Below, in pieces: positions 3,161 to 50,000 of a stretch of 64,000 nucleotides of DNA (its first letter is position 1; each line of letters begins with the position of its first letter). Location of the stretch: NCBI GenBank assembly GCA_039621445.1, contig CP154954.1, positions 24,626,954-24,690,953 of the forward strand, in the 5' to 3' direction. The stretch comes from Euglena gracilis (lineage: Eukaryota). Under the pieces are notes generated by a model. It was not told the origin of the DNA. It did no database searches and saw only the letters and a list, made by a program, of their open reading frames with translations. The translations under genes and the position numbers were made by a program.

Positions 3161-3191
3161 AAAAACGCTCGTTTTCGGATCAAAGCCGTCT

Positions 3192-12235: not shown

Positions 12236-12440
<205 letters not shown>

Positions 12441-16923: not shown

Positions 16924-19764
16924 CTCAGGCGGCGCATCTCGCACTTCAGTTTTTTTTCGTCGATTTTCGCTCATCGACCATTTTTTGATTTGGGTGCTGG
17001 CGTTACAAGGGGAGAGAGTGAGAGGCAGCAGGATAGGACAAAATACGGGCGATTTCTCATTTTTGGCACCGGCTCTCCTGAGAATTACGCTTTTTTGCTG
17101 TTTTTTTTTTTTTTTGGTGGTCGGAATGACACGAAAACCCCCGGACCTGTCTCCCCAAAATGAAAAACACCGACAAAAGCACCAAAATGCCGGTACCGCC
17201 TTCCCCCTTTTGGTTCGATGCGACTCTCCTCACTGGTTCAGCCATGTTTTGAACAAATAAAGCAGGTCGATGTGCGCAGTTGCGCACATCGTCCATTCGA
17301 TGATTCCCTGAAGAACGTCCATAAATGCTCCAAGATTCATACTTTTGAAAACGGTGGGTCAAATACCGTGAGTTTGGGGGCGAAGATGAGATCGGTTTGT
17401 TGGACACCCTGGCTGGCTCCCTCCAGGGGTTTTGACGCACTTTTCTTGTTTTTGCCGGTCTCAGACTTTTGTTCGTTTGCCAGAGCGCGGAGAACAAGCA
17501 TGGGGGGCTAGAGTGGCTCCAATCACGCCGCCGGTCCGTGCAGGGTGAAGAGAAAGTGGTTTAAAGGGGAGGGATGGGTCGCGAGTCCCCACCGAACTTG
17601 CAGTGGGATGCGTCCGGCCAAATTGTATCGTGATGAAATGGGAGAATTGATGACACAAATTTCACTGGAATGATTTTTTTGTTGCGCAAATGCGCACATT
17701 CGACAACGTGTGCGCATTTGCGCACACCAAACTGACGTCCCTTTCCATGAAGCGGGAACGGGCCTCGCTGATTTGAGCTTTTTGAAACAAACAATAACTG
17801 AAAGAGCTTACCATGCAGCTTTGCTCTGAAAACAGACAGAAATACACTAGAAGCATCAATTACCAGGTCGGAATTAAAGAAAAAGTGGTCGGTTTGCGCA
17901 AATGCGCACGTGGTCCGCATTTGCACACTTTCAAACACCGACCACGTGTGTAAAGGTTGACGTTGTCGGAGTGCGAAATGGGCACACCATGACGACGTGC
18001 GCATTTGCGCACACCAACCACGATAGCAAAATTCAGACAGAACACATCAAACACGACCCCAAACACCACCTGTAATGGCTCCTTCGGTGTGCAACTTACT
18101 CAGCTGCCAAACGCTCTCCTCAACGATGAGGCTGTTTTCAAGGCCAATTCTGGTCCAGTGACAGGTCCAGGTCCATGTGGAGACCGTACACCTCTGGTAG
18201 GTGGTCCACCGCTCGCACGTCGCGACACACGTGCAATGACTCTGCTTGGGGTGGCCCTCGAAAACCCCCGCCACTTGCCCCCTGGCTTGCGTTTTGCTGC
18301 ACCAGTCACATCAGCTGATGATAGCTGGTTGCACTTAAGCATCCACCAGGCCGTCATGAACCCCCAGTTCAGCAGCAGCCACCGAGGTGGCATCATTATC
18401 CCCCACAGCCGAGACAGCAGACTGGATGGGCGGGCAAGCTGCTAGTCCATGGAAACAATGGAAAATGGGGCGTCTTAAATGTGGCCATAAAACTCATTCT
18501 TTTGGAGGTAGAGAGTATTTGATGTTTACACCTGGTTGGGTTGCGTGAAAGTATTGGGACTCAGCACCCCTGTTTTCTGAGGGGAAAATGAGGCATTATT
18601 ATTGTGGCAAAACAGAAAAAGTGTTCCTGGCCGAGGCGTCAGGAAGATTACATATGCGTAATTTTTGAAATTCTGGAAGTCGTTATTTTTTTGAAGAAAG
18701 GTGTCCAGCAATCATGGGGGGTTACACATCATCGATTCCTCCCCGCAATTTCCAAACTGATGGCACGAAAACGATTGGTCGTACGAGTTGGGGATCAGAT
18801 ATGCAAAATTTGCCCTTGGAGAGGACAATATTTCTCCTGTCATGTAGTGTGTTCCACTGCACGTTACGCATAACATAAAAAAACCAAGTTTTCTTCACCA
18901 CACAATATCTTCAACACAATAGTTTGTGCACACAGTGGTCAGTGTGCGCAAATGCACACGTCAATTGTTAAGGATGAAGAGCACTCTATAACACGGGGGC
19001 AAAACAAAGGTACATTTACAAGCCACCGTTCTATGTCACAAATTGCAAACGGTCCCCATTCAAAATCCTTGCCCAAGATTTATTTCTAGGTCCAAGAAAA
19101 GGCAGGAGTTGTGTTCCATGTGGTAATATAAAAATGTGGAGTATATTTCTCAAGTTTCACATGGTTAGTGTGCGCAAATGCGCACACCAACCATTCAAGC
19201 AATTGTGCTCACAAACCAGGTATGTATTTCGAGTCAGTGGTTGGTGTGCGCATTTGCGCACATCGCCCATCTACAAAATACGCAAATGGTCGATGTGCGC
19301 AAATGCACACACCAACTCCTTACACAAAATGCAAATGTGGTCGATGTGCACAAATGCGCACATCGACCCTCTTTTCATAAATTTGTGTCAGGTGTGTTCC
19401 ATCGCTACACACACATCCCGATCCTGTCGATAGCAGCAGAGTTCTGGAGAGTTTTTTATGCAACAATCGTCGCCTAATTCACCTGCACATCACATCATCT
19501 CCGAATGGTGGAAAGTTGGTCCCTTTCATCATCACCCGGCAGTTACAGGCAGCACGGATGCACCAAACCCATAGTCGTTACAGCCAGGGTGTACAACCCA
19601 CCTATTTCACAGACGACAACACCAATCTGTCGCTCCAGATGTTTCACACTGCCGCTTCATCAGGCGCAGTCGGCGGTTCAAGGAAATTGTAAAAAATGTT
19701 GATGTGCGTAATTGCGCACATCGACACAGAAAAAACAGCTTAAGTGCGAGATACGCCGCCTAAG
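16924..19764. mobile_element. 2.8-kb non-autonomous or decayed relative of the 11-kb transposon
   Basis: CTCAGGCGGCGCATCTCGCACTTCAG (16924-16949) versus CTTAAGTGCGAGATACGCCGCCTAAG (19739-19764): 23/26 inverted match, and clearly related to the large element's TIR. Flanks are CCTCC/CCCCC (4/5 match). It holds about 11 copies of GTGCGCAnnTGCGCAC. No intact ORF. Confidence 0.85.
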
Positions 19765-25360: not shown

Positions 25361-26265
25361 GCGCTCCATCCCGCCCATCATCCGCCCAATATGGCATTTG
25401 GGTCAGCCATGCCACTGTTTCGGTGGGGGGGGGGGGTACCCCAGCCTCCTTTTGACCAGGGGGGGTCCGACCCACTCCCCCCACCTGCCTTTTTGTTGAG
25501 CCCTGTTGCGGGGCTGTGCATGGGCCAGTTTTCCAAGAAAGAATAAATGGGAGAGTTGGTTTGGGAAAATTTACCCCCTGGGTCATCAGTGAATCTATGA
25601 TTGAAGCCCAGATGCAAGAACTCACACACATCTATTTGTTTTGTCAGTCGTTTAAGTCACCCAAGTTGTCTTATATTCATTCAAATTTCTTTCGCCTCTT
25701 GGGAAGTTGGGTGGAAAAATTTAAATCCCAAATTTCGCTGCCCAATCCAAGGTGGTTTGTCTGTTCAAAAAGGAAATCATTTTGAGGAATTTGATTTGTA
25801 CCGGGAAACAGCGCTCCTGGTTAGTTTATCAGTTGACAGCGGTCAAAAGAAAATTTTCATTCCTTGAGATGTGTCACTGGCTGCAGCCCAAGGGGGGGGG
25901 GGTCTGTTTTGGGGGAGGGGTAGGCATCTGAGAAAGCTTCAGGGCAGCTTCCTCCGCATTGGCGGGAACCTTCCTGCAGCCTTGTTTTTTTTGGTTTCGT
26001 TTCCCGCACAGCAGATTTTAGCTTTTAGCTTACCTTTCAGCACACTAGATTTTAGTCGGGTGCCGACCCCATCTGGGGGGGGGGGGCTGCCTGGGCAGGT
26101 ACTCCAAGGCACTCCATATCCGACCCCCCCCCAGGGGGGGTTGGGCACTTGGTCAAAAGTGCCTAACAAGCACTCGGGCGCTGAAGGCGCCGGAAGGCTC
26201 AAAACAGGCCCATTTTCAAGGAAAATGGCCTATTTTCTGAGGAAAGTTCTTGGGCACAGGCCGAA

Positions 26266-26291
26266 CTTAGGCGGCCTAATTCGCACTTAAG
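26266..26291 (+). repeat. Left 26-bp terminal inverted repeat of the 11-kb element
   Basis: Reverse complement of 37329-37354 with one mismatch; preceded by the TSD CCGAA. Confidence 0.95.
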
Positions 26292-27695
26292 GATTTAACT
26301 TTTTATTTGCGCATATGCGCAAATCCCCCGATTTTTTGATTCCGGCGGGGAAGGTCCAAGGGTTCAAGGGACACGCCGGCAAGCAAGGGCAAAAACGAAG
26401 TGATTTTTCGGTTTTGGCGATGAGACCCCTGGGGTTTTGGGAAAAAATGGTGTTTTTTGGGATGTCCAAAATTTTTATTTTAGGCCAAACCCCCGGGACC
26501 CTGCCCGCCAAAATAGAAAAAAAACTGAAAAAAGCACCTGGGGACCGGGACCCTGCCCGCCCCTGTGGTGACGCGGAGCCTTTTTTGGGGAAGCGGACTC
26601 GCCGGCAGTGTGTTCCCTCCCGGTGCCTCGGAGTGTGTGTGTCTATTTTGACCTTTGGGACTTGTGAATTTTTGATTGGTAAGGAAAGCAGCAGACAGGG
26701 TGGCAGGGCTTTGGGAGGGGTGCGGGTTGGGGGGTCCGGTGTGCAGGGGGTGCAGGGAGGAGGGGTCCACGGGTGCAGGGGTGACGGTGCGAAGGGTGCG
26801 CAGGGGTGGTGTGCGGCGGGCAGGGCGGTGGGGGTGAGGCACCCGCAGGGGTTGTCAGTGGGGGCCTGGTTGCCTGTGTGTGGAGGCTTGCGTGCGTGCA
26901 ACCCGTTACTTTGACCTTGATGTTTTTGTGAGGCACCAAAACAGATAATTGATGTTGATGCGCGCAATTGCGCAAATCAAACGTACGGTGGTGTGCGTGC
27001 CAGGGTGTGGGAGGGGTGCCGGTGGAAGAACCAGACGATTGAAAGAGATGGGGATGAAAAGATAAGAGGGGAAAGAGAAAAGGCAGACTGGCAAACAGAC
27101 CCCCGGCGGGCGGGGTACACGCTGACCGCCCGGGGCTGAACAGGAAGGAGGGGGGCCGCCCCGCACTCCGCCGCGCGCAGGTTGTCAGTGGGGGGCGGTG
27201 CTTGGGGGGAGGGGTAATTAATTTTTTTTTTTGAACACGGGTGAGAGGGGCAGCACGGCACGAGAGGGGGGCTGCAGGGTCACGAGAGGGGGCGTGTCAC
27301 ACCAACCCACAAAAAAAAAACACAAATCCACCTCCCTGCAGGGTAGAGGGCGTGGGGATGACGGTTAGCAGGGAGGCGGTGTACACGGACACCACGGCGG
27401 TGGGGCAACTGTCTCTGAGCTGGCAGACAAATAACAAAACAAACAAAGTGTGCGTTTTACTTGCGCAAGTGCGCGCACCAAACGCAATGATGAATTTTTT
27501 TGAAATAAGAATTCCGAGAGAGGACAGACCATAGCCGAGAGGGGACTGAGAGGGGGAAACATTTGTAACCGTAACGTTTGCGCAAATGCGCGCATCAAAC
27601 GTGTATCACAGAGAAAAAAAAAACACTGAAAACTGAGTGGGGTGATGCAGGGAACAAACAAGAGAGAAGTTGCTGAGACAGGCCCACAGCCAGTC

Positions 27696-30600
27696 TCACT
27701 TCTTGTGCTTGGAGAGCCGCTTGGCCAGGCTCTCCGAGGCGGCCGCCGGCTTGGCGCCGGGCTTGGCCAGCCCGCGGCGGACGGTGCTCCGGGGCGCCGC
27801 AGCCGGGGCGGTACGAGCCGGTGGCGGCGCCGGGGCCTCCGCCTCCTCCTCCTCGGACTCCTCCCCCTCGGACTCCTCCGCCGCTGCCTCCGGCGCTGCC
27901 GCTGCTGAGGCCGCCGCTGCCTGCGACGCCGCTGCCTCCGCGGCCACCTTGGCCTTGGAGGCCTCGATGATGTGCTTCATCGCCGGGTACTTCTTGGGGT
28001 CCAGCAGGTGGTACGACTTGGGGCCCTTCAGGGCCTCCCCCGGTCCCGGGGGACGGATCAGGCCCGCCGCCTTCCACCGGGTGTCCTCCCCCTTGCCTTT
28101 CCCCTTGCCCTTGCCCTTGCCCTCCCCCTTCTTCTCCTCCCCCTTCTTCTCCTTCCCCTTCTGGGTGGGCTCGGGCTTGCGGTACCCGGGGGTGATCTCC
28201 TCGATGGTGTCCTCCTCCTCTTCCTCTTCTCCCTGCGCCGCTGGTGGGGCTGCGGGGGCTTCGCTGGCGACCGGCGAGGAGGTGTCGCTGCTGCCACTGC
28301 TGGTGCTGCTGCTGCTGTCCTCCTCCACCTCCTCCGCCTCCGGGTGACGGCTCGGCTGGGCCCGGGGCGGCGGCGGCACCAGGACGGGGCTGGGCCCCTC
28401 CTCGGGCTGGCTGGCGGGCGGGGTCAGCTCCGGGGTCTCCCGCCCCGGGGCACTCATCTCGACGTCGCTGCCCTCCTGCGGGCTGTCCGCGGCCTCGGTC
28501 TCCTCCCGTCGGGGTTTGGGCGCTGGGGGCCTGCTGGCCTTCTTCTCCGGCTCCTTCTTCCGGCGCTTCTTCTTCCGGTCCGCCCCACCCTTCTGGCGCT
28601 CCTCCAGCCTCTGCAGGCGGCGCTGCTCCTGCCGGACCTTGGTCTGCTGGCGCCGCTCCTCGGCCTCCTTGGCCCTTCGCGCCGCCTCCTCGGCGGCCAG
28701 GCGGAGCTTGTCCTGCAGGGCGGCGTTCTCCAGGGGGACCCAGAGGGCGTCGCCCCCTTCCAGGGCGGCCAGCAGGAGGGGCAGCATGGCGGAGGACACG
28801 GGGCGGGGCAGGGTCACCGTGTTGGCCACGGTCTGGGTGACGTCCTCCAGGCTGCTGGCCGAGTCCTCCACCACCACCAGCACCTCCGGGGGCTTGGCCG
28901 CCCAGGCCGCCACCCGGCCCGCCACCGCGGCGTCGGCGGTCTGGATGACCATGGCGTTGGCCGCCTCCATCCGCCGCACCACCCGCCGCCACAGCCACTC
29001 CACGCACAGCCAGTGCAGCCCCGCCCCGCAGCTGGACTCCACGTCCCACTCCACCTTCGGCAGCACCTACGAGGGGAGCCAGGCAGGCAGGCATAGACAG
29101 GGGAAAGCTTTTTTTGTGCACAAGGTGCGCGCAATTGCGCAAGTAAAATGAGAACCACCAAAAAAAAAACCGTGGCAGTCATTGCAGCAGCAAGCAGTTT
29201 AATTGTGACACTCCCATGTATGCACATTGTGTGGGGGAGGGTGTACACCTTGCTTCGCTCCACGTCCCCCGGGCCGAACACCACCACCAGCGTCCTCTTC
29301 TCGAACCTGCGGGCCACCCCCTGGCCCCCCTGCCGCAGCCACACGTCCACCGTCACCGACTCCCGCCCCGGCGCCAGCCGCCGCACCGCCGCCTCCACCG
29401 CGGCCACCGCCCCGACACCACCGTAGATGGCGACCGGCACGACGCCGGCCAGGCGCTTGACCTGCTCAGACAGGAGGGGGCAGGATTCTGTTTCACTGGA
29501 CACGTTTCTGAAGTGCGCTGTTACATTTGCGCAAGTGCGCGCATCAAATTTAAAAAAAAATGCACACAGTATATGTCACAAGCAGCCGCGTCGAGAGGGG
29601 AGAGTGAAATGCAATGAAATGAATTTTGTGTTTGGTGCGCGCAATTGCGCAAGTCAAACGGGAACATCAAAAGGAAAAATACACCAAGCAGAAACAGAAC
29701 CCTGAGCCGGTACTGGGCGTGACCTCCACCACCACCAGGCCCACCGCGGCCCCCAGCGCCTCCGCCGGCACCGCGCCGGCGCTGGCCTTGTAGGCCAGGC
29801 ACTTCACCGCCTTCTCCTCCCCGTACGGCCGGGCCACCCCCACCTCCTGGAGGGCCCCGCCCTCCTTGGCCACCACCTCCGACTGCACCGCCGGCAGGGC
29901 GAAGGAGCCCCGCAGCTCCTCGTACTGCGCCTCCACCCAGAAGGCGGCCGTCAGCACCGCCGCCAGGGGGGGCTTCGGCTCCACCGGGCTCCACGTCCAC
30001 GACCCCAGCCGGGTCACCTGCAGCGCCGCCGCCACCGGGACGGTCCGCTTGAAGCGGCTGCGCTCCGCCCCGTTCGCCACTGCAGGAGGAGCACGGGCGG
30101 GGTGGGACTACGGACACACCACGTCACCCGTCAAATGCATCTGTGTGCATGCACCCTATGCACCATATGCACCCTCATAACCTTATCCCAGATGGATTGA
30201 ACAACGGTGGCATACCGATCAGCCCGTGGATGTGGGGGTTGTCCTGCCGCCACGCGAAGGCCACCCACATCTCGTGGGTGGCCTCGGTCACCGCCTGCTC
30301 CAGCTGGGCCAGGCCGATCCCCGGGCTCTGCAGCGCCGCCGCCACCTGCGCCCGCGCCTCGGGGGTCAGCAGCCGCCGGAGGCTGCGCACGTGGGAGGAC
30401 AGCAGCATGCGGCCCCTGGCCGCCAGCGCCGACTCGACGCTCAGCAGCCCCGCCACCGCCTCCGGGTTCTCCTCCACCAGCCGCTGCAGCGGCCCCCACA
30501 TCTGGATGACCTGCCCCTGAGAACAAGTGAACACACTGTACACCCCCGACCGACAAGTTGCAATGTGCAATGCGTTCACTTTTGATGCGCGCAATTGCGC

Positions 30601-31875
30601 AAATGAAACGAGAACACTCTCCATGTAATGCACTGGCTGACTGGCAGTGGGCGGACACCTGGGCGACCGACCGGTCCCAGCCGGCCTGCCGGTAGGCCGC
30701 CGCCAGCCGCACCGCCGGCACCGTGGAGATGTCCTTCCCCTTCACCAGGAGGTTGGCGAACTGGGGGATGGACAGCTCCTTCACCGCCGACTGGATGGCC
30801 TGCGCGTCCCCACCGGCGGCCCGCCGCAGGTGCACCGGGGTCAGGGGGTGCAGGATGGTGGCGAGGACGTACTTCCCCTGGCCACAGCCCTGCATTTGCA
30901 CCGTTGTCTGTCACACCTGGGAGGGGCTGCATAGGAGGGGCGTCACGAGAGGGGGCGTCACGGGAGGGGGCGTCACGGGAGGGGGCGTCACGAGAGGGGG
31001 CGTCACGAGAGGGGGCGGAGGGGGCGTCACGAGAGGGGGCGTCACGAGAGGGGGCGTCACGAAAAACACACAAACAAATACAGGTCTGATCCCTTCGGGG
31101 GGTTCAACTTCTGGGACCGGAAGCCCTCCGCCCAGCGCTTCAGCGCGGAGGTGATGTGCTGCCCCGACATCAGCACGTAGTGGTTCTCTGTGACGACAAC
31201 GCAGGGAGGTGCGCGCAATTGCGCAAGTAAAACGAACTGTGTGTCTAAGTGCGCGCAATTGCGCAAGTCAAATGCATCACGTGTGCATGTGCGCGCAAAT
31301 GCGCAAATCAAATGCTTTGTGTGTTATTGCGCGCAATTGCGCAAATAAAATGGTACTCACAATGCAAAGCACTTGCCAAAGCTGAGCCTCACATACCAAA
31401 AGAGTCTGCGCACACAAACCAATTTCACAGAAACCGTCACACCTCAAACACACATGTAAAACACAATCGCAGTGGGAGACACACCGGCCTTCTTCCAGAC
31501 CGTCACCCTCACTGGCTCCAGCGGGGGGTTGAGCTGCAGCTGCCGGAGCTTGCGCTCCACTTCGTTGTTGTCGAGGGGGCGGGTCTGGCCCTCCGTCATC
31601 CCGTAGTCGACGTGGAGGGTGTCGAGGGGGAGTCGGGTGCCGGTCGCCAGCACCCATTGCTTGACCTCCTCCTTATACACCTCCGCAATGGGGAGCTTCC
31701 GGGCGGTACTTCGGGGGCGGATCCGCCCCGCCTTGGGGGCGGGCTTCGGCTCCTCCGCCGCTGCGGCCTCCGCCGGGGCCGGCTCGCCGCCAGCCTCCGC
31801 CGCCTCGGTCCCGGGCTCCGCCTGGCCGGGGATGACGGGTTCCCCCTCCGGGGGGACAGCAGCAGGGTCGGCCAT
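27696..31875 (-). CDS. 7-exon cargo gene (~1000 aa): ParB/Srx-like N-terminal domain, possible degenerate DNA amino-methyltransferase fold, coiled-coil/charged low-complexity C-terminus
   Basis: Exons: 31875-31485 (ATG; donor G|GTGTGT), 31187-~31075 (acceptor CAG|), ~30890-30659 (donor CAG|GTGTCC), 30516-30216 (donor G|GTATGC), 30079-~29723, 29461-29249 (donor AAG|GTGTAC), 29066-27696 (acceptor TAG|; stop). Four of six junctions are phase-consistent GT-AG; the donors of exons 2 and 5 are uncertain. The spliced N-terminus reads GQTRPLDNNEVERK...PVRVTVWKKAENHYVLMSGQHITSAL, resembling the ParB/Srx/DGQHR 'R.l....v..l ... vl.dGqHr..Al' pattern. Confidence 0.8.
30936..31062 (+). repeat. 15-bp minisatellite (GAGGGGGCGTCACGR, ~8 units) in intron 2 of the cargo gene
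   Basis: Directly visible tandem units; related degenerate units occur at ~27243-27300. Confidence 0.9.
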
Positions 31876-32420
31876 GGTGTGGGACCTGGGGCAAGGCGCC
31901 GTTACAAGGGGGGGGGGGGAGATATCCAGTGACTGAAACACACACGCAACAACTGCATTCAACACAGTCAAATACAGTCAAATCTACGGCAGGCAATCCG
32001 CCCAAATTGTGACAAAAATTCATCCGACTTAGGCATTTTCAGGCAAAAAATGGAAAAAGTGTGAAACAGTGCAACGGAACGCACAACATGCATTATTCCG
32101 GTCCGTAGCAAGGGGGGGTATGGATATGCTACGTTTTTGTAATCTTTCACGGCCTATCTGTGTCACAAAACGCCCAACACAAACCGGGGCTGACACGTCA
32201 CGCATTCAGGTCGCGTAACTGCTAACGCACGGGCGGTTTGCCGTTGGCGTCCGTAGGCCTGCTGTTTTGGAAATCTAGAAGTCATATGGCGTGAAGTTTC
32301 TGAATTTTTTTCTTTTGGTGAACATACACCCCGTCACGGCGCATCGAATGACCCATAAAATAAGGCGTGGTGTTGCTTGTATCAAAAGTTACTGTTTCGT
32401 CGCCTCATCGGCAAATTCGC

Positions 32421-32638
32421 TCAGTCGGACCCCTCGAAGGGGTCCGCCGGGACGTACGCGCGGGGCGCCCTCAGCGACACCACGTCCCGACTGCTGGTGG
32501 CTGCCCCGCGTCCCACAGGGTCCTCCGGCACCCTCCCGCCCGCCCGCGGAGGCGACTCGTCACCCGCTGGTGACTCGAATCGTGACCTTCGAGTCGGTCG
32601 CTCAGACGGGGACTCCTCCGATGAGGACTCAGCAGCCC
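32421..32638 (-). CDS. Probable terminal low-complexity exon of the transposase gene
   Basis: GC-rich open frame (AAESSSEESPSERPTRRSRF...DPFEGSD*) preceded by a CAG acceptor, on the same strand and downstream of the transposase. The splice phase to the upstream exon could not be confirmed. Confidence 0.35.
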
Positions 32639-32680
32639 TGGCCAACAACAGACTCACGGTGCACCAAAAAATCTATTTTT

Positions 32681-32732
32681 AGAATTATTACTTTTGATGC
32701 GCGCAATTGCGCGCATCAAAAGTAATAATTCT
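32681..32732. repeat. Perfect 52-bp palindrome centred on the element motif
   Basis: AGAATTATTACTTTTGATGCGCGCAA|TTGCGCGCATCAAAAGTAATAATTCT. Confidence 0.95.
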
Positions 32733-33143
32733 TCTGGGAAGGGGGGTCCATGCTGTGATCTTTGAAAACTGTAACATTGTGAAACTTACTTGCTTACTTA
32801 CTGTCAAATTTTCAGCACCCTTCCCTCTGCTCCCAGAAAGCGTACGCTTTATCAAGCGCAAGCACAAATCTGAAGAACTGGGTATACCCCCCTGACAAAT
32901 AAGACGGTATCTTTCACCCGGGATAGCACGAATTTCTTAACGGATGCTGTACACCAACGGGGCCTACTGCACGTCTCACATAACAGCGCATCAAAAGTGT
33001 GGTACACTTTTGATGCGCGCAATTGCGCAAATAAAAATGTATAAACTGTTTCCCAAGGCAGAGCCGTATCTACAGCCTCTCCGTATGTGTGCACACGTTT
33101 TGTACGTTTGATGCGCGCAATTGCGCAAATGATAATTCACATA

Positions 33144-36139
33144 TCACAGTTTCTCTGCTCTGAACGTTAGTATAACCGCAGTAATGCTGAACACCCCCTC
33201 TAAAACGTGCTGACCAACCGGGAGTCTGGATGCTGCCTGCCCAGGAGCTCTCTCCTGGCGTGGACGACGGCGACCCAGCACGCTGTCCCAGTGGACGTGG
33301 CACAGGTCCAGCTGCGCCTGCGACCGCCGACTGCGGCCTGTCTGCGCGTCGAAGCAGAGCTGGTCCAGCTCAGTAGCGGCGTCAGCAGAGGGCACCTGGT
33401 CCTTCAGGAGCGTCCGCAGCGCGTACTGCAGGACGTCCTTCAGGGCGGTCTCGCCCTTCGGCCCCGCGTCCGGCGCCAACAGGGACGGCGGGCCCACCCA
33501 GCCGTCCGGCCACCGCGGAACCACGGACTGGTCCTCGGACTCCTCCCCCTCGTCCGCGTCCAGCTCCTCCGGCTGCCGCCGTCGCTCTCGGCGCAGCCCC
33601 CGCACTGAGGCGTACGTCACCATCTGGTGGACCAGGCGGTCCGGGGCGTCCAGCGGCGGCCGCAGCTCGCTGCCGTCCAGCAGGTAGTCCAGGTTGCGCA
33701 GGCAGTCCGCCAGCCACCGCCGGTCCACCCCGCCCGCCCGCAGCTCCCGGGCGCCGTGGTGCCCCTGCCGCACCAGGAGGTAGAGGTCCATCACGTCCTC
33801 CACCTCCACCGCCTCCGGGTGCTGCTGCATCGACCCGCCCAGCCTGCTGAGGGTCGCCTCGTTGACCTCCTCTGAGAAACAGCAGGCGGGCAGGTCCGCC
33901 ACCGGTCCCACATCAGCAGCGCGCACGCCAGCGTCCGCACGTAGTCGGAGTGGCCCCGTGGGCGGTGCCCGGGTGTCGGCGCCTCCAGGTGCAGCAGCAT
34001 CGTCAGGGCGTTGCACAGCACCTTCCGCGCCTGCCCGCCCGTCTGCGGCCGCCGCTCCTCCCAGTGGCACTCCCGCACCTGCCACCCCAGCGCGAAGCAG
34101 GCCGGCGCCCACACCAGCAGCAGGTCCTCCAGTGCCTGCGCCACCGCCAGGTCCCGCTCCAGCTTCTCCAGGGCCTCCACCGCCTGGGCCTCCTTCCGGC
34201 GGCAGTGCTCCAACGCCCGGATGCACTCCATCTGCCGGCTTCCGGCCTGCCACGCCCGCTCCATCTTGGCGCTGGCCGCCGCGTGCCGCACCTGCCGGGC
34301 GGTCTGCCGCTCTGCCTCCTCCTGCCGCCGCTGGGCCTGCTGCGTCTTCTGCCGGCGCCGCTCCACCTCTGGCACCACGGTGTCCCGCCGCCGCCGCAGG
34401 GTCCGGATCAGCCGTCGCAGGCGGGCGCGGCGGTCCGCCGGCACCAGCAGCATGGCGCCGACCCACATCTCCAGCGCCCGCACCTTCGGCTTGGTCGACC
34501 ACTGCTCGCCCGGCGCCATGGTGTGCCCCGCTGCAGGAACAGGAACAGCGGCAGCAGGCGGCGGTACAGCACGTACAGCACCTGCTTGTACGCGTGCCAC
34601 ACGCCGTACAGCGGGGGCAGCTGCCGCAGCGCCTCGCCCGCGTCCCACCGCTGGCACTCCCGCCCGTAGACCACCTTCAGCTGGCGGTACCACAGGTTGA
34701 TGTCCACCAGCAGGGGCAGCGGCGCCCTCACGCGGCCCAGGACGTCGCCCTTCAGGAAGCGGAGGACCTTCAGCATCCCCACCTGGGAGGAGATGCGGTC
34801 GTCCGTCAGCATGAAGGGGCGCCACACCGGGACGCGGGCGTTCTCTCAGCCGCATCGGAGCCGCCTAAGTGTGTGTAACACCAAGTGCATGGTAACACCC
34901 CTGCTACAAAACGGACCATAAGCAACTTTTGATGCGCGCATTTGCGCAAATGCGCGCATCAAAAGTTGCTTTGCAAATATTCAACAGATGCAGAGAGTGA
35001 CCCAGGACTGGAACTCACTTCAGTTCACATGGTGCGCGCAAATGCGCAAGTCAAATGGGACTGACAGCACAAAAGAGAAATCTGCGTATAGTACTGTCTG
35101 CCAGTTGCCTCACCTCACTGAATTTCAAACACTTCTTTCGTAACATTTGCGCAATTGCGCGCACATTACGTAGCAATTCAACTTCGTTCAACTGAGACCC
35201 AGTCACAACCTCAACCCTCCAGGACATCGACACCAATGTACACAGGTTGTTCACACCCCTCGACCCATCCACCGACGCAGACCGTTTCAAAAAGAGAAAA
35301 AAAAAAAACAGACCCAGTCCCTCTGATGGTTGGGGCACGTCCAGCGGTACGCGCAGCTCGTGCGCCTCCAGCGGGCGTGCGCCGATCTCGGCCACCAGCT
35401 CCAGGAACGCCGGCAGGTCGCTGCGCACCAGCCGCGCGGCCACCCGGGGGATGCGGCCCAGCAGCTGCTCCAGCGACGGGTACCCCGGGTACTCCGGGAT
35501 GCCGCCCACCGCCGTCCGCATCATGGACATCACGCAGCAGTCGTGGGTGCGGATCACCATCCTCGGGTTCGACGTCATCGCCCGCTTCCAGAAGTTGTCG
35601 AACCAGAGGACGCAGCTCCGCCCCTCCGACTGCTGCCACAGGTCCTCCAGGCGCTCGCAGGCCCGCTCCCGCCGCCACTGCCGGTTCCACACCGGCTCCC
35701 CCGGCAGGATGCCGCTGGGCCGCAGCAGTCGGCTGGCCGCCCGGTGCCGGGCCAGCGGCGCCTCGTGCTCCTCCGCCACCACCCGCTGCGCCGCGCGCGG
35801 GCAGGCGTGCTGTCGGAGCGCCCGGTACACCGCCCAGGCGTCCTTCAGCAGCAGCTCGATGCGGGGCCGCCGGGGCTCCCGGGCCAGCTCGTCCAGCAGC
35901 GCCGCGCCGCCCTCCGTCCGCAGCGGCACCCGGGTGTGCGCCACGTGCACCACCAGGGTCTGCAGCGGGTGGCCGCGCTGCACCACCGCCGCCACGAACT
36001 CCTCGTACGTGGCGGCGTAGTGGGCCTTCACCAGCTGGCCCAGCAGCTTCCCCAACTCCGCGGCCTGGGCGGCCTCCTCGCTGTAGCCCTCGTAGCCACG
36101 GCGCCGGGAGTGGGTGCTGCTTGCCTGGGAGGACTCCAT
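33144..36139 (-). pseudogene. Spliced RNase-H-fold DDE transposase (RAG1/Transib/DUF6589-like), with two frameshifts in this copy
   Basis: GC-rich coding blocks at 36139-~35313 and ~34845-~33219 lie either side of an AT-richer intron. Motifs in order: VLWFDNF (D at 35597-35599), WRPFML..SSQVGMLKVL, LLVDINLW (D at 34702-34704), PLYGVWHAYK, DYVRTL, FSEEVNEATLSRL (E at 33858-33860; compare Transib LSEEAQEARNK and RAG1 SEGNESGNK). The reading frame shifts near 34522 (...QRG|TMAP) and near 33898 (...DRW|DLPACC). The intron junctions are approximate. Confidence 0.7.
34920..34971. repeat. Perfect 52-bp palindrome inside the transposase intron
   Basis: AAGCAACTTTTGATGCGCGCATTTGC|GCAAATGCGCGCATCAAAAGTTGCTT. 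Confidence 0.95.
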
Positions 36140-37328
36140 TCAGTCCCCTTCAGATCCGGCGGCCCACCACCTTTCACCAAAAACCCACCATTCCGCCAAC
36201 ATAACACCGGTCACTTCCACCATTCAGAATGCATGCATGGCACACACACCACTCACACACTACACATCCACATATCCTTATGAGTCATTTTTTTTTTCTT
36301 TGGAAACGTTTTGTGCGCGCAATTGCGCAAGTCAACAAGGAAACAGGATCACAACAATTCACGGCTATACCCCGCCTGGTCATCCGCCATGTAGGTTAGC
36401 TCCAGGCAGGGCAGCAGCAATCAAACGTCATCATGTGGCCGTAACCACCCCGCACATCACACACACACTCCCAAATTGGTTGTCAGCATGACATCTCAGG
36501 AGTCACAACATCTCCAACAGTCATACAAATCAAGACCCCCTTTCGCTCCACTGAGTAACCCATAACGTCCAAAGTGTTTCATTGGTCACACCACACCCAC
36601 TGGGCAGCCGCACAACAAAAAAGTAATAAATTGTGCGCGCAATTGCGCAAGTAAAACGGTACCACCTTTCATCACTGACACAAATCTCGGGCGTCACAAA
36701 CCCATTCTCAGCAACTCAATTCACAATTCGGGAAGCAATCGTTTGATGCGCGCAATTGCGCAAGTGTGCAACGCGCCACAAGTAAATTTCTGTTGTACAC
36801 CAACTGGAAGGTTCTAATTCGATGGGTGTTTCTTCGCACTCCTTCAGGACAGTGGCTGTCATACCCCTCTTTCAACATAATCAATTGCTTCGTAATTCGC
36901 AAGTCCTGGCACCCAACACACCCTCGCAATAATTCTTCAACCCATCCAGGGTGTCCGATTCCATCGTCGGCCAAACCATTGATATGCACAGGTCACATTT
37001 GGACACCCAAAAGTCAAAACCTGTACGCCGCCGGATCTGGCCAATTGCTTGCCGCGGGCAGCTGTGGGGTGGTAGTGGGTGTAGGTGGGTGCCCCGCGGG
37101 CGGCGGGAAAGAAAGCGGCTGCGGAGAGGGACAGGTACAAAATTTCACGCGTGCGTCACGTCGCGAAGTCCAGTTAGGACTTTGTATTCGAAGGGGTTCG
37201 AATTGCCCAGCCCTAACGAGTTCCGGTCGCGATCACAAAATTTTTTTTTCGGCGGACAGGGTACAGGGTCCCGGGGGTTATAAAAAAGTGGTAAATTTGC
37301 GCAATTGCGCAAATCAAATGAAAAAAAG

Positions 37329-37354
37329 CTTAAGTGCGAATTCGGCCGCCTAAG
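37329..37354 (-). repeat. Right 26-bp terminal inverted repeat of the 11-kb element
   Basis: Reverse complement of 26266-26291 with one mismatch; followed by the TSD CCGAA. Confidence 0.95.
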
Positions 37355-38089
37355 CCGAAATCCAACCCCCCCCCTGGGGGGGTGCCCGCCTGGGACTCCG
37401 ACCCTCCCCCCCCCCGGTTGGTAAAAAAAAGACAGCCTGGGGCACGCCGGCGTGGCCCATCCCCCAACCCCAGCCGCCCCCCGGGGCCCGTCCCCCTGCC
37501 ACGGACCAGCCGCGTGCACCCGCTGTTCCCCCCGCGGCCGGCGTGCCCGTACCAGGTGGGCCCGGGGGGCCGCAAGTTGCCGCAGCTGCAGTGCGGCATC
37601 TGAGGGGTCGGCAGGGCCCGGCCACCCGTCCGCCCCCCCCATTGTCCCCCCTCGGGTGTCCGCCGGTGAAGCTGGAGCGAAGAGGAAGCACTCAGATCGC
37701 GGCGTCAAGTTTCAGAATGACTTATTTGGGGGTCACACATTAGTGAAAGTTGAAAGAAAGAAAGCCCAGCCAGATGAAGAGGAGTTGTGTAGGCTCCACT
37801 GCCTGGGGGGGGGGGGGATTCACCTCGTTTGTCCAAGATACCACCTGTCATCGACATCCCACCCACGTCAACAATACATCCATGTCATTATTAAACCAGG
37901 TTTTGAATAGTGCTGAGCTCTTAATGGGACATGCACGTGATGGAAGGCCGAAAAGACTAGCGTAGCAAAGTTCGCCTAATTTACAATTTACAAACTACAC
38001 TGTTTCAATTTACGGTGATTTTCAGTGATTTTACGGTAATTTCTGAAATGCTAATGTTAACACCCCATACACCCCATCCCCGTTTTATA

Positions 38090-39275
38090 GGATTTTATCG
38101 ACTTTTTTTTGATCCGGTTTTTCACCCAAAGTCAATGGGTTTCGGGCCCAAAACGGGGGCGCTGGCGGGTCGAAAAACGCTCATTTTCGGCTCAAAAACA
38201 GGTTTTACGGGTCTGGGAGGCCAAAAAAAATCGTTTTGGGCCAAAAAAATCGATTTTTTTTCGACTTTTTTGACCCGTTATCGACCCAAAGTCAATGGGT
38301 TTCGGGCCAAAAACGGGGTGCTGGCGGGTCGAAAAACGCTCATTTTAGGCTCCAAAACAGTTTTTCTGGGTCCGGGGAGCCAAAAAGACACCGTTTCGGG
38401 CAAAATAAATTTCCGATTTTTTTTCGACTTTTTTGACCCAGGTTTGACCCAAAGTCAATGGGTTGGCGGCCCAAAACGGGGCGCTGGCGGGTCGAAAGAC
38501 GCTCATTTATGGCTCCAAAACAGGTTTTCCGGGTCCAGGAGGCCAACAAAACATCGTTTTGGGCAAAAAAAATTCGATTTTTTCGATTTTTTTGACTCGG
38601 TTTGACCCAAAGTCAATGATGGGTGTCGGGTGCAAAACGGGGCGCTGGCGGGTCGAAAAATGGCCAAGTCAAAACAGGCCAAAACTGCACAAAATGGCCA
38701 AAATTGGCCGAAAAATGACCGTAACTCGGGCCAGACAGGGAGTTGCGGGGAAATCAAAGTACCGTTACATAGAGGATTTTAAGGGCTTCAAATTCGGTCT
38801 GCGGACATTTCCTTTTTGCTTCATTTTCGAGATATTTTGAAAAAATCAATCTTTGACCGAAAAACGGCCCAAAAAAAAACACCCAAAAATGCCCGTTTTG
38901 GGCCGCAAAAGCACGCCGGAACACGACGGCCAAAACGGCAAACGGGGGGCGATGGAGGGCCTCCGGGGGTACATTTCGTCAGACCGACATTCCCGGATAT
39001 AATGTACGTTTTCTCGAGATATTTTCGAAAAATCGATTTTTTGACCGATTTTTTGACCCCGGCAAGATGGCAGAGTTGGAAGAGGGGGGGGGCGGGCCAA
39101 TGCTACCCAGTTTGGACCCTTTCGCGCGTGAATAACTCGGGCCTGGCGGGGAGTTGGGGGTCAAACCCAGGTGATTCGGAAACTAGAAATCCAGTCGCTT
39201 GTGACTAGAAAAAAAATTCCGGAACGGAGCTGGAATCATGGTTATAATCCGCCCGTTCCCGAGTTGGCCCCGACG
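38090..39275 (+). repeat. Dispersed repeat family with internal ~160-180-bp tandem units (…CCCAAAGTCAATGG…AAAACGGGGCGCTGGCGGGTCGAAAA…)
   Basis: Four units at 38100-38660. Homologous pieces lie at ~3935-4020 and 41780-41940, and 38660-39270 is similar to 42640-43345. Confidence 0.8.
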
Positions 39276-42085
39276 CCGGATGCCCAAGCCCCGCCCTGGC
39301 GCTGCCCTTCGTCTGGGGGTGGCGGCCAACCGTCGATCCCCCCAAAAGCCCGGCGTTCAGCGGACGGGTGCCCCCCCCCCCCATCTGGCTTGCTCCGCTG
39401 CCTTCTCCGCCCGTCCTCCGCCGCTCCGTCTCACCCGCGTCGCCCTCCCTCCCTCCCCCCCCCCGTCCCGCGCCGCACACCGCAGTGGGGACAGCGAACC
39501 GTCGGCGACGGGCAGAGAGGAGGACGCCCTGGCCGGTGCGAGGCTCCTGTGCCGGCAGCCAGTGAGTCCAGTGGCCCGGGACAGCAATCCCACCGACGGC
39601 CCTCCTCACCGTAAGGGAGCAAATGGCCCTCCTTTTGGAGATTCACAAAACATCACTCTGAGTTGGGTTTTTTTTATCGTATTCGGAGAAACTGCCGTTT
39701 GTGTGGCGTTTGAAAGCAAATGAGTTCTGTGAAAGGTTTTTTTTTATCGAAAGCCAAAAAACGTCAGTTGTGTTGTCGATACTGATATGCTGTGCAAAGT
39801 GAAATCAAACGAAGTAAAACAAAACAAATTGTTTCTTTCATATTTGAAGGAGGAGGGCACCACTGCCCTCGTGTTGTTTGTGTCCCTCGTGGGCTCCGGA
39901 GCATCCCCCCATTCCAATTCAAGTCGGGGGTATCAAGACTATCCTCCACCGGTAGTATCTGTATCGTTTATCCAATGTGGTGGTCTTCGCAAAAGGACAA
40001 TTTCCGATAATTTTGGAAAAACCCCAAAGTTTCAAAGTCAAAAAGACGCATTTAGCCGATTTTTGGGGGCATTTATTTAGGGCCAGGTCGTTGCCAACAG
40101 TTCTACTGTGCATGTTGGTGGGTCACATTAGGAATCCCATCAGGATGGAGCTGTGGAGCCCAACACTGGACTGTTCGTTGTGAAGTTCTCCTTTCCTCTT
40201 CCCTCAAGCCGGAGTCATATTTGGCTCCGTCGCATTGTGGCCACACGTGCAAATGATCAAACCACAACTCATGTCGGGAAGGCGTTCAAAATACCTCCAA
40301 GGAGAGCCTTATTTTGGATTTATCAACCTGGCCAAGAAACCATCATTTTTGGGGTGTTCCCAATAACACAAAAAAACTTTTCGGTGCTTTGCACTGTTCA
40401 TAAATTGGTCTGATATGAGGTTCCATGTAATTACTGTTCCGAAAAATTCCGAAGTATCAACGATCTCATCATTGTTGTCCTTGAGAATTGGGGTTTGGGG
40501 TATTTTGCAGCTTTTTTTTTCACCGTGAAGCGCCGCCGGGTGGTCTTCAATTTGGGAAGGCAAATACCTTGTTCCTAATGACGAAGAGCAACGATGGAGA
40601 GATATGGCACCATTAAGGACCAGAAAGCAATGCAGTATTTTATTTCCAAAATAGGAATCACACAGTTAGAAAATCGATGGAAATTGCCATTCAGATTTGG
40701 GGGGGGAATTATATTTGGGGGGGAGTTATAAAATGCTTTTAACAACGTCCACTTTACTGAAACCAATTTCCACCAGATCTCCTGCCATTGCAAATGTCCC
40801 TGTGTCTCATTGATTCAAGGACCGGACAAGACCTTCCCTGACAGTAACAAAAAAAATGAACTGTCTCATTTCCAGGAGGGATACTATGCTCTGTGTGCAA
40901 AAAGAGTGTGTGGCTGTATATATTACCCTCCCTCGGGGTCCGACTTCGGCGACCGGGTTAATACCCCCCCCCCAGTTTAGGGCCAAAGGCCCGGATTTTG
41001 ACCTGAAAACGTTGTTAAGAATCACAATCTCTCACAACGAATTACGAAAAAAAAATCTTTCTGGATCATCTGACCTCCAAAGAATGCCAAATTTAATAAG
41101 AAAGTACAAAAATGACCCCAAAGGGGAGTTTTGGTGCTATTTTGGCTCCTATGGGACTTCGAAAAATTTCGAAAGTTTTGGGGTGCTCTGACCCCCCCCC
41201 AATAATACCCCCCTCGGGCCGGGACTTCGGGCGAAAAAATGATACCCTAGCGGTGTATTATTTGGGGGGTTTACTCTCTTTGGAAAATAATCTAACTCTC
41301 CAATAGGGATTTCAGGGGCATTCCGGTTCATCTCTCACTCGAGTTAAAGAAACTCCAATGAGAGTTTATTAATAAAAAAAATTACTATGACATCCACCAT
41401 TCTGACACCATGAAACGCACTGGTCCAGCAGGGTGTATGGGGTTCTTGTTTTGTGAATTAAAGCAAAGGCGTGACAGCAAGTTGTTCGTGCTCCGGCAAG
41501 TTGTTTCAAACATCTATTATCGGCCATCACCTCTCAAAATATTAGTTCTGCCCTTACCTTTCCGGGGTTGGCAACCTTCCATCCAAGTGGTCTCACAGCC
41601 AGGGTATTAAGTGAAGGGAGGAGGGGAGAATGGGGTCAGACCCCCCCAGGGTGGGTCCAGACCCCTCCTCCCCACCTTCAAACCGAGGGGGACCTGGACC
41701 CCTCTGGGGACCAGATCCCCATGAAAAATCTAAGGCGCTTTGCACCGTAGTGACGGCGTAAACTGACTTGTTGACCCGTTTTTGACACAAAATACACGGG
41801 TTTCAGGCCCAAAACGGGGAGCTGGGGGGGTCGAAAATTACTCATCTTCGGCTCAAAAATAATTTTTACGGGTTCAGGAGGCCCAGATGCATTGTTTGGG
41901 GCAAAAAAAAAATCGATTTTTTCGACTTTTTTTGACCCAGAAATGGCCCAAAATCCTTGGGGCCCGGGGGTCGAAAACCGCTTTTCGGCTCGAAAACAGT
42001 GTTTCCCAGTCAGGCTGTATTTTAGTTGGGTGCCAACCCCACCCCAGGGAGGGGAGGGGGTGCTTGCCTGGGCAGGCACCCCAAG

Positions 42086-42465
42086 CAGGGTTCGATATAA
42101 GGAGGGCGTACATGGTTTAGGTGGGGGGGGTGTCCCCCCACCCCCCCCCCTCCTGGCCCGCAGGGGGGTCCGGACCCCCCCCCCCACCTGCAAGGGGTTC
42201 CGGACCGACCCTGGGGGGGTACCCAGGACCCCCCCAAAAAGGGTCGATTTTTTCCTCCGGCGCTTCGCGCCGAAAATTTTTTGCATTTTTGGCAAATTTT
42301 TGCCCAAAAAGTGCCCAAAATGGCACTTTTGGTCATTTTGGGGGGTCAAAAATTTTCGGTCACCCGGACTGCGCCACTGTTTAGGTCGGGGGGGTGTCCC
42401 CCCACTCCTGGCCCGCAGGGGGGGGTCCCGACCACCCCCCCCTCCTCTCCTTATATCGAACCCTG
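42086..42465 (+). mobile_element. hAT-type MITE family A, copy 1 (TSD ACCCCAAG)
   Basis: TIR CAGGGTTCGATATAAGGAG ... CTCCTTATATCGAACCCTG; 8-bp TSD at 42078-42085 and 42466-42473. Confidence 0.95.
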
Positions 42466-47047: not shown

Positions 47048-50000
47048 GGGGGGGGGGCTGCTTGGGCAGGTACTCCAAGGCACAAAAATCTGACCTACTT
47101 GGAGGGGGGGGGTAGGGCACATGGCCACAAGTGCCCTAGCACAACCCTGGCGCCGGGAAGTCCAAAATGGCCTATTTTCAAAGGAATGTGCCTGGGCACA
47201 GGCCGAAATCCAACCCCCGGGGGGGGGGGGGTAGTGCCTGCCTGGGCAGGCACTCCGGACCCCCCGGGGTTGGTAAAAAAAACGGCCTGTTCGGAGGTTT
47301 GGCCATATTTTTGCCTTTCAAAGGGCTGAAAATTTTTGCTCCCCAAAATCAGCTCAAAAATGCCATTTTGAACATTTTCGGAGCAAAAATTTGTCAAAAA
47401 TGCCAACAATTTCTGGCACAAAGTGCCGAAAGAACCCCCCCAAGTTTGATTTTTTAGACCCCTAATGACCGACCCCGCAGTCGGAGGACACCTTTTTGGT
47501 CAGAGCCCTGTGTCCAACGACCCCCCCAGGTCAGGCAGAGATAACCGGTCGTTGGAAGGGGTACCGTGCCTTGGACAATGGGGGGGAGCAGTTGGCAGGC
47601 AGAAAGGCAGGCGCGAGTCAGCAGAGTTTATGGAGCACATTGTTTTTAGAATGGCCGCAATAAAGGGGGTTCTTCATTCACTGGACGGAGAAGGTGGTCG
47701 CCGTGAGGACGCAGGTGTTCGGCGGCGGGAAGCGGACCGGGCGACACCCCTCCCCATGTCTCCCAGTGCTCTCACCTGTCTGGGTTTCCCTGCCGGACGA
47801 AGCCATCCCGTCTCCGTCCGTTCCTGCCGTGTCGGCCCAGGGGGTCGGGACCCCCGAACGGCCGACCCCGTCCACCACTGTTCGGCAAACCTCGGCCCGG
47901 GTCCCCCCCCCCCCGAACCCCCGTCCCCGTCGCGCACTGCGCCTCCCCCCCTCCTTGCAAGTCAAGGCTGGCCCCGTCGCGGGTCCCGATCGTCCCAGAG
48001 CCGGGCGCGGCCGCCTGCGGAACCCCGGGGGCTGGCCGTCCCCTCCCCTGGCCGGGGTGGGCTGGCCAGGGGAGGCATTGGCACCAGCCAGCCCAGCCCC
48101 CTCCTGGCCCACGGGACCCGCCAGCCCGGAGAGCGGAGCCAACTCAACCCCGCCCAACTGTCGGCGGACCTCAAACCGACGCTGCTGCGGGGAACCCACG
48201 CCCAAGGGGCTACTGAACGTCAAGGAAGGACGCAAGGAAAGGAAGCAACCAAATGAAAGACTGTCAGCGCAGTGCCATTCTTTTCCAGTTGAGATGTGTT
48301 TGCTCTTCGATCATTGCTTCAAGGGACATGCATCTTTCCTTCAGGGTGTGCCTGCCCCTCCTTTTGGAACCAGGCAATCAATCCCTCAGTCATTGGCCGA
48401 CCCCACCTCACCACCCAACCCAAGTGGTGATTGGTTTCTTCAGGATGACTGACTGTTTTTTGTTCTAAACCCCCCTCCCTCCCTGCCCGAATGCACCGGG
48501 ATTTTGAGGAGGGGGTATTTTCTTCATATTTTGCAGTCAGATTTCCGTGTATCGCAGAGTTTCCGACCCCAGGGACTTCAGACTGATTGGGTTTTCAGAA
48601 AGGGTGACTTGCTGCTTTTTGGAAGCGTGTAAGTACCACTGGAACAAAAACGTTTTTTGTTGGCCACTCAGTCTAACTTTAAGCAGCCACTCAGTAATTG
48701 CAATGAAATCCGAATGTAAGCAACCCGCATTTGATTTGGTTTTTTTTTGTGGATTGTGGTGGGCAAATCAGGTCCCATCTGCCGGGTCGGACAAAACCCT
48801 GTCCGATACCCCTTCCCAGGAGTCCAGTGTCTCAGACAGCTTTATCCCCCAAAAAAGCGAGCTTTGCTTATTCCCGGAAGGGTCACCTGTCACCTGTTTT
48901 ATCAAACCGGTGGAGAAGGAATGGAAGGGTTTCGCACATTTTGTAGGAGCTCCAAAGGAACCGAACATTTTCAATTTTCGAGCGCGATGGTCGGAAGTCA
49001 CACCAAACACCAAGCGGCAAGCGGTGGGTGGGCCCCATCGCCACTCCGGAAAAACGTTGGACACCCTTTGAAAGTGGCCCGCCATCATTTAGCCGCCCCA
49101 ATCCGACTGAACCTCGCAAACTCCGGGGTGTCCTTCTTTGAGCAAGACTTGGGCTGGGCCAGCTCCATCGGCCAACTGCCGACGATGGCAACTTGTTGTG
49201 CCTGCTGTGGAAAGGGGTGGCTGAAATGGGTTCTAGCACGAATGGGTCTAACACCCACGAAATGGGTCTAACACAAAGCGAGGGGTTGCAGGTTTCTCAT
49301 GCTCAGGGACAACAAGGCGGCTCGGCTGCCAGAACCCTCACTTATCCTTGGCAATGCACAGGCACCAATGGCTCCCCCGTTCGAGTTCCGCCGGTTCTCC
49401 GGTGCTCTACCCCCGTTCGCTCTTCTCATCCTCCCAGCGCCACGCCATCCCATCCCCCCCCACGACTGATCCCTACCGTCCAGCTGCCAAGCTCCGTGAG
49501 TACAATGGATGGCCCAAGGGAGGTGGGTCGGCGGTAGCCTCATGAATTGGATGGGGTAGGGGACACGGGTTTTCTGAAGCTTGAGGAGACCATGCCACAG
49601 GGGGCCGGGGGGGGGGGGGCAGCCAGCACCTGCTTTCCAGCCAGCACCTTCCAGCTGGCCCATGGGACCTCTTTGACCCATTTAAGAAAACCCCTGGCGG
49701 CGCAGGGCGAGAATGTAGTATGGTTCAGTTTTCTCATGGACTGGTCATTCTTTTTTTTTGGTACACCTGGAGATGTGACGCAGGTTTGCCCCCCCACACA
49801 AAACATGCAAAATGTGCCCCCCAAGGTGGGCCCTTCAGGCCTGTACCTTTGTGGTCGACCTCAGCTGGCAGAGGCCATTTGGCTCCCCCCAAGGGCGCTC
49901 ACACCTGAGGGGGGCTTTCTTCCCGGTTTACTTTCTAGTTTACGAGCTTCTTTCATCAGCCTTGGTTCCTCAAAAGTCAGGTATTGTCTTTAACTGGCGA

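Follow-up and report, generated by a model that had tools for sequence, protein, structure and literature searches.

The 64,000-nucleotide window of the Euglena gracilis genome analysed here (assembly GCA_039621445.1, contig CP154954.1, positions 24,626,954 to 24,690,953 of the forward strand; all coordinates below are window positions) harbors a complete DNA transposon bounded by terminal inverted repeats (TIRs). This transposon, referred to as element A, spans 11,089 bp (26266..37354, minus strand); besides the gene of a transposase, it contains another gene and 24 palindromic motifs. Its left TIR, CTTAGGCGGCCTAATTCGCACTTAAG (26266..26291, plus strand), and its right TIR (37329..37354, minus strand) are 26 bp long and identical at 25 of 26 positions, and the likeness of the two ends extends to about 60 bp at 83%. 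The termini read CTTAGG..CCTAAG. An end pattern built from three similar ends matched four times within the window, where 0 matches were expected: twice at element A (26266-26291, plus strand, with 0 mismatches, and 37329-37354, minus strand) and twice at the ends of a smaller relative, element B (16924-16949, plus strand, and 19739-19764, minus strand).

On both sides, element A is directly flanked by CCGAA (26261..26265 and 37355..37359), as expected for a target-site duplication. In addition, the window contains a paralogous empty site (47164..47223, plus strand), an uninterrupted copy of the dispersed repeat that was hit by element A, in which CCGAA occurs only once (47203-47207). The left flank (26222-26265) matches 47164-47207 at 39 of 44 positions, and the right flank (37355-37375) matches 47203-47223 at 16 of 21 positions. 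As the two matches overlap by exactly the 5 bp CCGAA, both the boundaries of element A and the 5-bp duplication, which an earlier note on this DNA had already claimed, are confirmed. The inverted match between 26266-26324 and 37295-37354 (60 bp) could suggest a dispersed repeat, given a third copy at 19687-19766, but the pattern search and the empty site identify these sequences as element ends. The repeat that received element A belongs to a dispersed, G/C-homopolymer-rich family with copies at 26049-26265, 37355-37440, 42019-42589 and 47047-47289, and element A is located inside one of these copies.

The transposase gene (33147..36139, minus strand) extends from an ATG at 36139-36137 to a stop codon at 33146-33144 and is disrupted by one intervening sequence and two frameshifts. 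The reading frame runs from the ATG to approximately 35314-35324, breaks for about 470-484 bases and resumes at approximately 34844-34839. Exon 1 (35314..36139, minus strand), the end of which was predicted from a GT at 35313-35312, encodes an N-terminal helical region and the first half of the predicted catalytic core with the motifs WFDNF and RVPLD, and its product is 52.6% identical to the homolog P0006 across 272 residues. Exon 2 (33147..34844, minus strand) encodes the second Asp, a G(2)H motif, an insertion domain with a coiled coil, the putative catalytic Glu helix and a C-terminal domain. The intervening sequence between them (34845..35313, minus strand) is either an intron or an insertion and contains three palindromic motifs. 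The homologs read straight through this position: the junction is contiguous in P0006 (VPLDVPRPAARSPVWRPF), and P0001 is also uninterrupted there. Canonical GT..AG excision would keep the frame and add 5 residues in comparison to the homologs. Four public runs were compared over the region 32900-36400, the contig-based runs X1, X13 and X15 and the RNA run X24. No splice junction was identified in X24, which contributed 23 reads, 3 of them at >=99% identity, too few to inform on expression or splicing. With the intervening sequence taken out and both indels read as in the other runs, the gene comprises about 837-842 codons, the higher number resulting from both run-derived indel corrections together with the GT(35313)..AG(34845) intron. 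Near the 3' end of the intervening sequence, the first nine bases of the inverted end (CTTAGGCGG) recur on the minus strand (34861-34869), and within this stretch the bases 34866-34869 are not the same in public contigs as in the window; the recurrence may represent chance (0.26 matches expected in the window) or the trace of a nested insertion.

The two frameshifts, which the earlier note had located near 34522 and 33898, were both found. Frameshift 1 (34521..34522, minus strand) consists of two extra bases in comparison to the homologs (acacc where acc is needed). At frameshift 2 (33897..33898, minus strand), the window is four bases short between a Trp codon and an Asp codon, at a position where the homologs read W-H-E-D. 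The two bases at 34521 are omitted in 40,234 of 78,830 units of depth in X1 (10 contigs), in 2,284 of 3,584 in X13 and in 24 of 24 in X15. Similarly, an insertion of TCGT behind 33897, which restores W-H-E-D, accounts for 3,244 of 4,135 units of depth in X1 and for 12.6 of 12.6 in X15. The X15 contigs lacking frameshift 1 and frameshift 2 display 0 other differences to the window across 263 and 393 bases, respectively. As both frameshifts are thus absent from otherwise identical contigs of other runs, an open-frame version of the window sequence exists, and the frameshifts are either assembly errors or lesions of the window copy.

The minus strand encodes the motifs WFDNF, WRPFML, LLVDINL, GVWHAYK and FSEEVNEATL in this order, precisely as the earlier note had described, and all five were found to be conserved within the family in an alignment of 128 homologs (all residue counts below refer to this alignment and to the numbering of the homolog P0007). 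WFDNF contains the codon of the first predicted catalytic Asp (35597..35599, minus strand; D165), and LLVDINL that of the second (34702..34704, minus strand; D303). They are followed by GVWH (34594..34605, minus strand; part of GVWHAYK, 34605-34585) and by SEEVNE (33858..33872, minus strand; part of FSEEVNEATL), which contains candidate catalytic Glu codons at 33872-33867 and 33860-33858. Conservation of the three acidic residues had been set beforehand as a test of the earlier proposal, and it was pronounced, with Asp in 107 of 108 homologs at D165 and in 123 of 123 at D303, and Glu in 89 of 94 at E584 and in 89 of 92 at E587. Near-invariance was also observed for N166 (106/109), W163 (105/107), W338 (128/128), H339 (127/128) and R248 (117/118), and high counts were obtained for R513 (99/103), E583 (85/95) and G336, a position with Gly in 118 of 125 sequences and Ala in the other 7.

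One residue distinguishes the window copy from this pattern. A Gln codon (35330..35332, minus strand) is present at the position of the family-invariant Arg of RVPLDxPR (R255), which is Arg in 56 of 56 full-length members and in 117 of 117 aligned homologs. Among the 43 positions that are at least 85% conserved in the 56 full-length members, the window copy retains 41, the exceptions being the start Met, which is unaligned, and Gln for Arg255, the sole difference among the 42 alignable positions. The substitution is a possible inactivating change, apart from the frameshifts, and the window copy as assembled, with this Gln and two frameshifts, is probably crippled.

The homologs belong to a large, multi-copy protein family, which is nameless among the matches listed. 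A query with exon 1 identified one longer homolog, P0001, and a query with P0001 yielded 18 proteins, 400-890 residues long and derived from ENA and JGI assemblies, without a Pfam domain in any of them. A profile of homologs and window pieces searched against 1.84 billion representatives matched, at E<=1e-3, 1461 clusters (50% identity), of which 980 remained at E<=1e-10 and 369 at E<=1e-30. The matches listed originated from ENA, JGI or Logan, and the only name among them was 'hypothetical protein'. Pfam returned nothing relevant for the four window pieces or P0001 and nothing for ten full-length members at E<=1. Within the P0018 subfamily, one protein occurred in identical form on 35 contigs and another on 12. 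At least 120 clusters at 90% identity were listed (181 at E<=1), and most of those listed were fragments that lie on contigs of Mb size and share 70-96% identity with P0018. From run X1, 5444 contigs mapped to 32900-36400, with a summed depth of about 60,000-196,000 in coding bins, 10,600-13,600 in the core of the intervening sequence and 6,300 in the 3' flank, a difference of about 10-30-fold; the contrast had the same direction in X13 and X15. As depth does not equal copy number, the X1 values are taken only as a sign of many related copies. A metagenome locus scan revealed no relative among 96 candidate stretches, and a scan with single proteins returned one 3.1-kb contig, too short for element ends. 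No description of this transposase family was found in the literature searched, which included neither supplements nor Repbase.

Within element A, the non-coding parts are characterized by a 16-bp palindrome, TGCGCGCAATTGCGCA (core TTGCGCAA), of which 24 copies with <=1 mismatch are distributed over 26959..36762, and a degenerate subterminal copy with 2 mismatches is located at 37296..37313. At <=2 mismatches, the palindrome matches 36 times in the window, where 0.04 matches are expected, and never outside elements A and B. Copies occur in every intron and spacer of element A, the intervening sequence of the transposase gene included, but in none of the exons, and one copy is positioned about 40 bp inside each end. 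We consider the palindromes candidate transposase-binding sites; those of element A could be binding sites, mini-insertions or regulatory sites. Bins bearing palindromes were those of highest depth in the public runs. A parallel case was observed on the metagenome contig of a distant family member, P0197: region 1600-2485 of this contig (L001) contains the palindrome GTCCGCG-N6-CGCGGAC with 4 matches, where 0.14 are expected, one of them in the coding sequence and three downstream of the gene.

Element B (16924..19764, plus strand; 2,841 bp) is a non-autonomous relative with the same type of TIR and a variant of the palindrome, TGTGCGCAnnTGCGCA, which is confined to this element (17271-19720). 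With 48% GC and no open reading frame rich in GC at third codon positions (GC3), it has in common with element A the ends and motifs only. Its left end differs from the end pattern at 2 positions, and its flanks, CCTCC and CCCCC, are an imperfect duplication (4/5). Elsewhere in the window, tandem arrays are present with units of about 206 bp and 96-97% identity (10139-11830) and of about 160 bp (38093-38660), and short-period tandem arrays at 23944-24620 and 3185-3940.

The second gene of element A (27699..31875, minus strand) is situated downstream of the transposase gene on the same strand, has approximately six exons with a GC3 of 0.8-0.94 and encodes a protein with a long acidic tail rich in Glu, Lys and Ser. 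Its first intron contains a 15-bp repeat (30918-31077). The product had no match in Pfam, ESM Atlas or PDB sequence searches, and no kelch or RAG2-like match was obtained. It is conceivable that the putative transposase is instead a passenger or host-derived gene and that element A is moved by the product of the second gene or by some enzyme with a gene at another location. The function of the second gene is uncharacterised, the window copy of the transposase gene is damaged, and its role as a transposase is a prediction. We nevertheless regard such a scenario as extremely improbable, since the protein displays conserved D, D and E residues at the canonical positions of a transposase-like fold and belongs to a multi-copy family with many decayed fragments, since a distant member on another contig is also adjoined by repeated palindromes, and since the second gene shows no nuclease or recombinase signature.

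For the P-element transposase and its relatives, PMC8230255 describes a canonical layout in which strand 1 carries one Asp and strand 4 another, strand 5 is immediately followed by a [C/D](2)H motif, helix 4 carries a Glu, and an insertion domain separates strand 5 from helix 4. The AlphaFold2 model of P0007, based on the 128-sequence alignment, reached a pLDDT (predicted local distance difference test) of 91.9 and a pTM (predicted template modelling score) of 0.88. In order, it comprises strand 159-172 with D165 on it, a further strand (180-192), a helix that is long and inserted, strands 255-269 and helix 276-290. Strand 300-302 is directly followed by D303 and helix 304-315, and strand 333-335 directly by G336-V-W-H339. 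A large all-helical region then precedes helix 584-599, at the start of which E584 and E587 are located. In agreement with the Arg/Glu-rich insert that the earlier note had placed between the His motif and the Glu, this region contains a coiled-coil hairpin of two long helices (391-446 and 450-517; 34105..34447, minus strand), whose length varies within the family and is short in P0018 and P0019. The model of the compact member P0018 (pLDDT 93.8, pTM 0.88) has the same order of the RNase H core and the insertion after strand 5. In the topology of these confident models, D, D and E thus occupy the canonical positions of a DDE transposase, on strand 1, after strand 4 and in the helix past an all-helical insertion, which agrees with the earlier prediction of a DDE-type enzyme with an RNase H-like core.

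In a Foldseek search of the PDB with the P0007 model, dynein and SMC-like coiled coils dominated (best E 0.065), and P-element transposase (prob 0.57-0.60) and Hermes (prob 0.16-0.38) appeared behind them. As this search was swamped by coiled coils, the compact P0018 was modelled, and here the P-element transposase was the best match (6pe2_A, E 2.8e-3, prob 1.00, target-normalised TM score 0.39; 6p5a_A, E 3.2e-3, prob 1.00, TM 0.42). Chains of Hermes (E 0.075-0.45, prob 0.35-0.60, TM 0.23-0.31) came second, and ISCth4 (E 0.79, prob 0.16, TM 0.27) and HzTransib (6pqn_B, rank 37, E 0.83, prob 0.10, TM 0.23) were more distant. No RAG1 chain was found among the 50 matches listed. The best match in the viral library BFVD was weak, a Pandoravirus hAT-family protein with E 0.089. 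The modelled enzyme therefore appears nearest to P-element and hAT transposases in fold.

Taken together, we consider it likely that the gene encodes a DDE transposase of RNase H fold belonging to an 11.1-kb cut-and-paste DNA transposon, and that its family forms a separate lineage at the sequence level. Judged by sequence, the family would be placed within the insertion-domain group of DDE transposases but in none of Transib/RAG1, P, hAT or KDZ (Kyakuja, Dileera, Zisupton). The transposase would bind the inverted ends of element A and probably also the 16-bp palindromes about 40 bp inside the ends and across the non-coding parts, excise the element and insert it by making cuts with a 5-bp stagger. 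As in enzymes of the P, hAT and RAG types, the cleaved DNA end may be where the insertion domain and the invariant Trp-His directly behind strand 5 exert their function.

Several observations weigh against this interpretation. Two further acidic residues, D252 (116/118) and E380 (122/126), are near-invariant, and as such residues exist, the assignment of the triad depends on topology only; it is likewise the topology that suggests a convergence of D165, D303 and E584/E587 in space. None of 56 full-length members matched DUF6589, KDZ, hAT, P-element or RAG1 in Pfam at E<=10, and the 33 Pfam families listed for them were at chance level, with one or two members each. A sequence-profile search of the PDB with the family likewise gave chance-level matches only. 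Neither Foldseek search of the PDB produced a match at E<=0.001, and the target-normalised TM scores of the best matches did not exceed 0.39-0.42. Furthermore, the window copy carries lesions, and mobilisation might be assisted, or even carried out, by the second gene. Finally, the separate lineage is set against Pfam models, with Repbase superfamilies lacking such models outside the comparison, and it is not proven.

Only a small number of DDE transposon superfamilies exist in eukaryotes, and views on the kinship of transposases, RAG1 and domesticated enzymes have shifted with every addition. That element A and its relatives constitute an undescribed superfamily of eukaryotic cut-and-paste DNA transposons is a tentative proposal, which we regard as a distinct possibility. 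If true, this superfamily would be defined by a transposase of about 650-890 residues with the arrangement D-(~138)-D-(33)-G(2)H-(insertion)-E, in which the insertion is long and helical and often includes a coiled coil, by 5-bp duplications, by CTTAGG-type ends in this lineage, by a second conserved gene and by lineage-specific palindromes in all non-coding parts that would serve as multiple transposase-binding sites. Its place would be that of a deep sister to the group formed by P, hAT and Transib, and the 5-bp duplication would have arisen outside the RAG/Transib line.

Element A offers a complete element with verified ends, duplication and empty site, together with an enzyme family of 1461 clusters. 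The insertion-domain group of P, hAT and Transib/RAG would thereby be widened and gain a fourth well-modelled point of comparison. The family has probably been left unmasked and mis-annotated in protist genomes, and an open-frame copy is a candidate for a novel tool for transposition. An unexplained feature that deserves study is the filling of element A's introns and spacers with palindromes.

With respect to known systems, the nearest neighbor in language-model feature space is DUF6589 (PF20231), an uncharacterised eukaryotic family. In a feature search of the ESM Atlas, it was represented in 25 of the 30 nearest clusters, with a best score of 0.92 and 177 of 256 features in common; the recognition value of the query, 1596, is below the 2300 at which a high score counts as strong evidence. 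The earlier note had named DN, GDxxT and GxxH as motifs of DUF6589; DN and GxxH are present here, but the position of GDxxT is occupied by VDxN. In addition, the Pfam model of DUF6589 failed to match any of the 56 members at E<=10, any of ten members at E<=1 or any of the four window pieces, so that the link drawn in the note is a lead from the feature search. A distant relationship to DUF6589, which may itself be a transposase domain and might be connected to KDZ, is therefore rather unlikely in our view. The literature found to mention DUF6589 states no function for it. KDZ transposons resemble element A in that they are DDE transposons of eukaryotes, are large and frequently harbor additional genes, but their target duplications measure 8 bp (Zisupton and Dileera) or 7 bp (Kyakuja), according to PMC12730594, versus 5 bp here, and no KDZ match was obtained in Pfam among the 56 members.

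The earlier note had placed the enzyme in the neighborhood of RAG1/Transib, with a possible bearing on the deep ancestry of RAG. A 5-bp target duplication and a DDE core with a helical insertion before the Glu are indeed common to both, and HzTransib is among the fold matches. In PMC12730594, the Transib/CACTA (CMCT) clade is defined by two motifs, C(2)C and H(3-4)H, together with CA..TG termini, with target duplications of 2-5 bp, and of 5 bp for Transib. Here, as the note itself had observed, no obvious CxxC follows the second Asp: in the interval from this Asp to the Glu, a CxxC of any kind occurs in only 3 of 56 full-length members and forms no conserved column. An H(3-4)H motif is also not conserved, H339 being the only invariant His and the sole conserved column among Cys and His residues, and the termini CTTAGG..CCTAAG differ from CA..TG. 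HzTransib ranked far behind the P-element transposase in fold, none of the 56 members matched RAG1 or any other transposase in Pfam at E<=10, and no RAG2-like match was obtained with the second gene. The same source gives 5-bp duplications for hAT5 as well (PMC12730594); a 5-bp duplication therefore does not single out Transib and alone is no evidence of RAG/Transib kinship, contrary to the support that had been drawn from it. Membership in the Transib/RAG1 clade, even as a divergent branch, is thus very improbable, and the reading in terms of RAG ancestry is unsupported.

In fold, the closest resemblance is to the P-element and hAT transposases. P-element and hAT transposases generate 8-bp target duplications, and in the case of the P-element this is not matched by the 5 bp observed here; within hAT, 5 bp fits hAT5 only. 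A very divergent branch of P or hAT, e.g., near hAT5, instead of a separate superfamily would account for the best fold matches, the Pandoravirus hAT-family protein and a G(2)H in place of [C/D](2)H, but we consider it quite unlikely. No THAP, P-element, hAT dimerisation or BED match in Pfam at E<=10 was obtained in the 56 members, the fold E-values are marginal, particularly for Hermes, and at the third position ahead of the His, Gly or Ala is found but never Cys or Asp. In the P-element, moreover, the motif reads D(2)H, and a variable coiled coil in the insertion sets the present family apart. The two Asp residues are 138 positions apart here, versus 73 in the P-element (D230 and D303), according to PMC8230255. 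In common with Hermes and other hAT transposases, the family possesses an insertion domain. With the P-element transposase and THAP9, it shares the RNase H core with one Asp on strand 1 and another at strand 4, a motif ending in His right behind strand 5, and an all-helical insertion domain before the Glu helix. By its position, GVWH corresponds to [C/D](2)H in P, hAT and related transposases.

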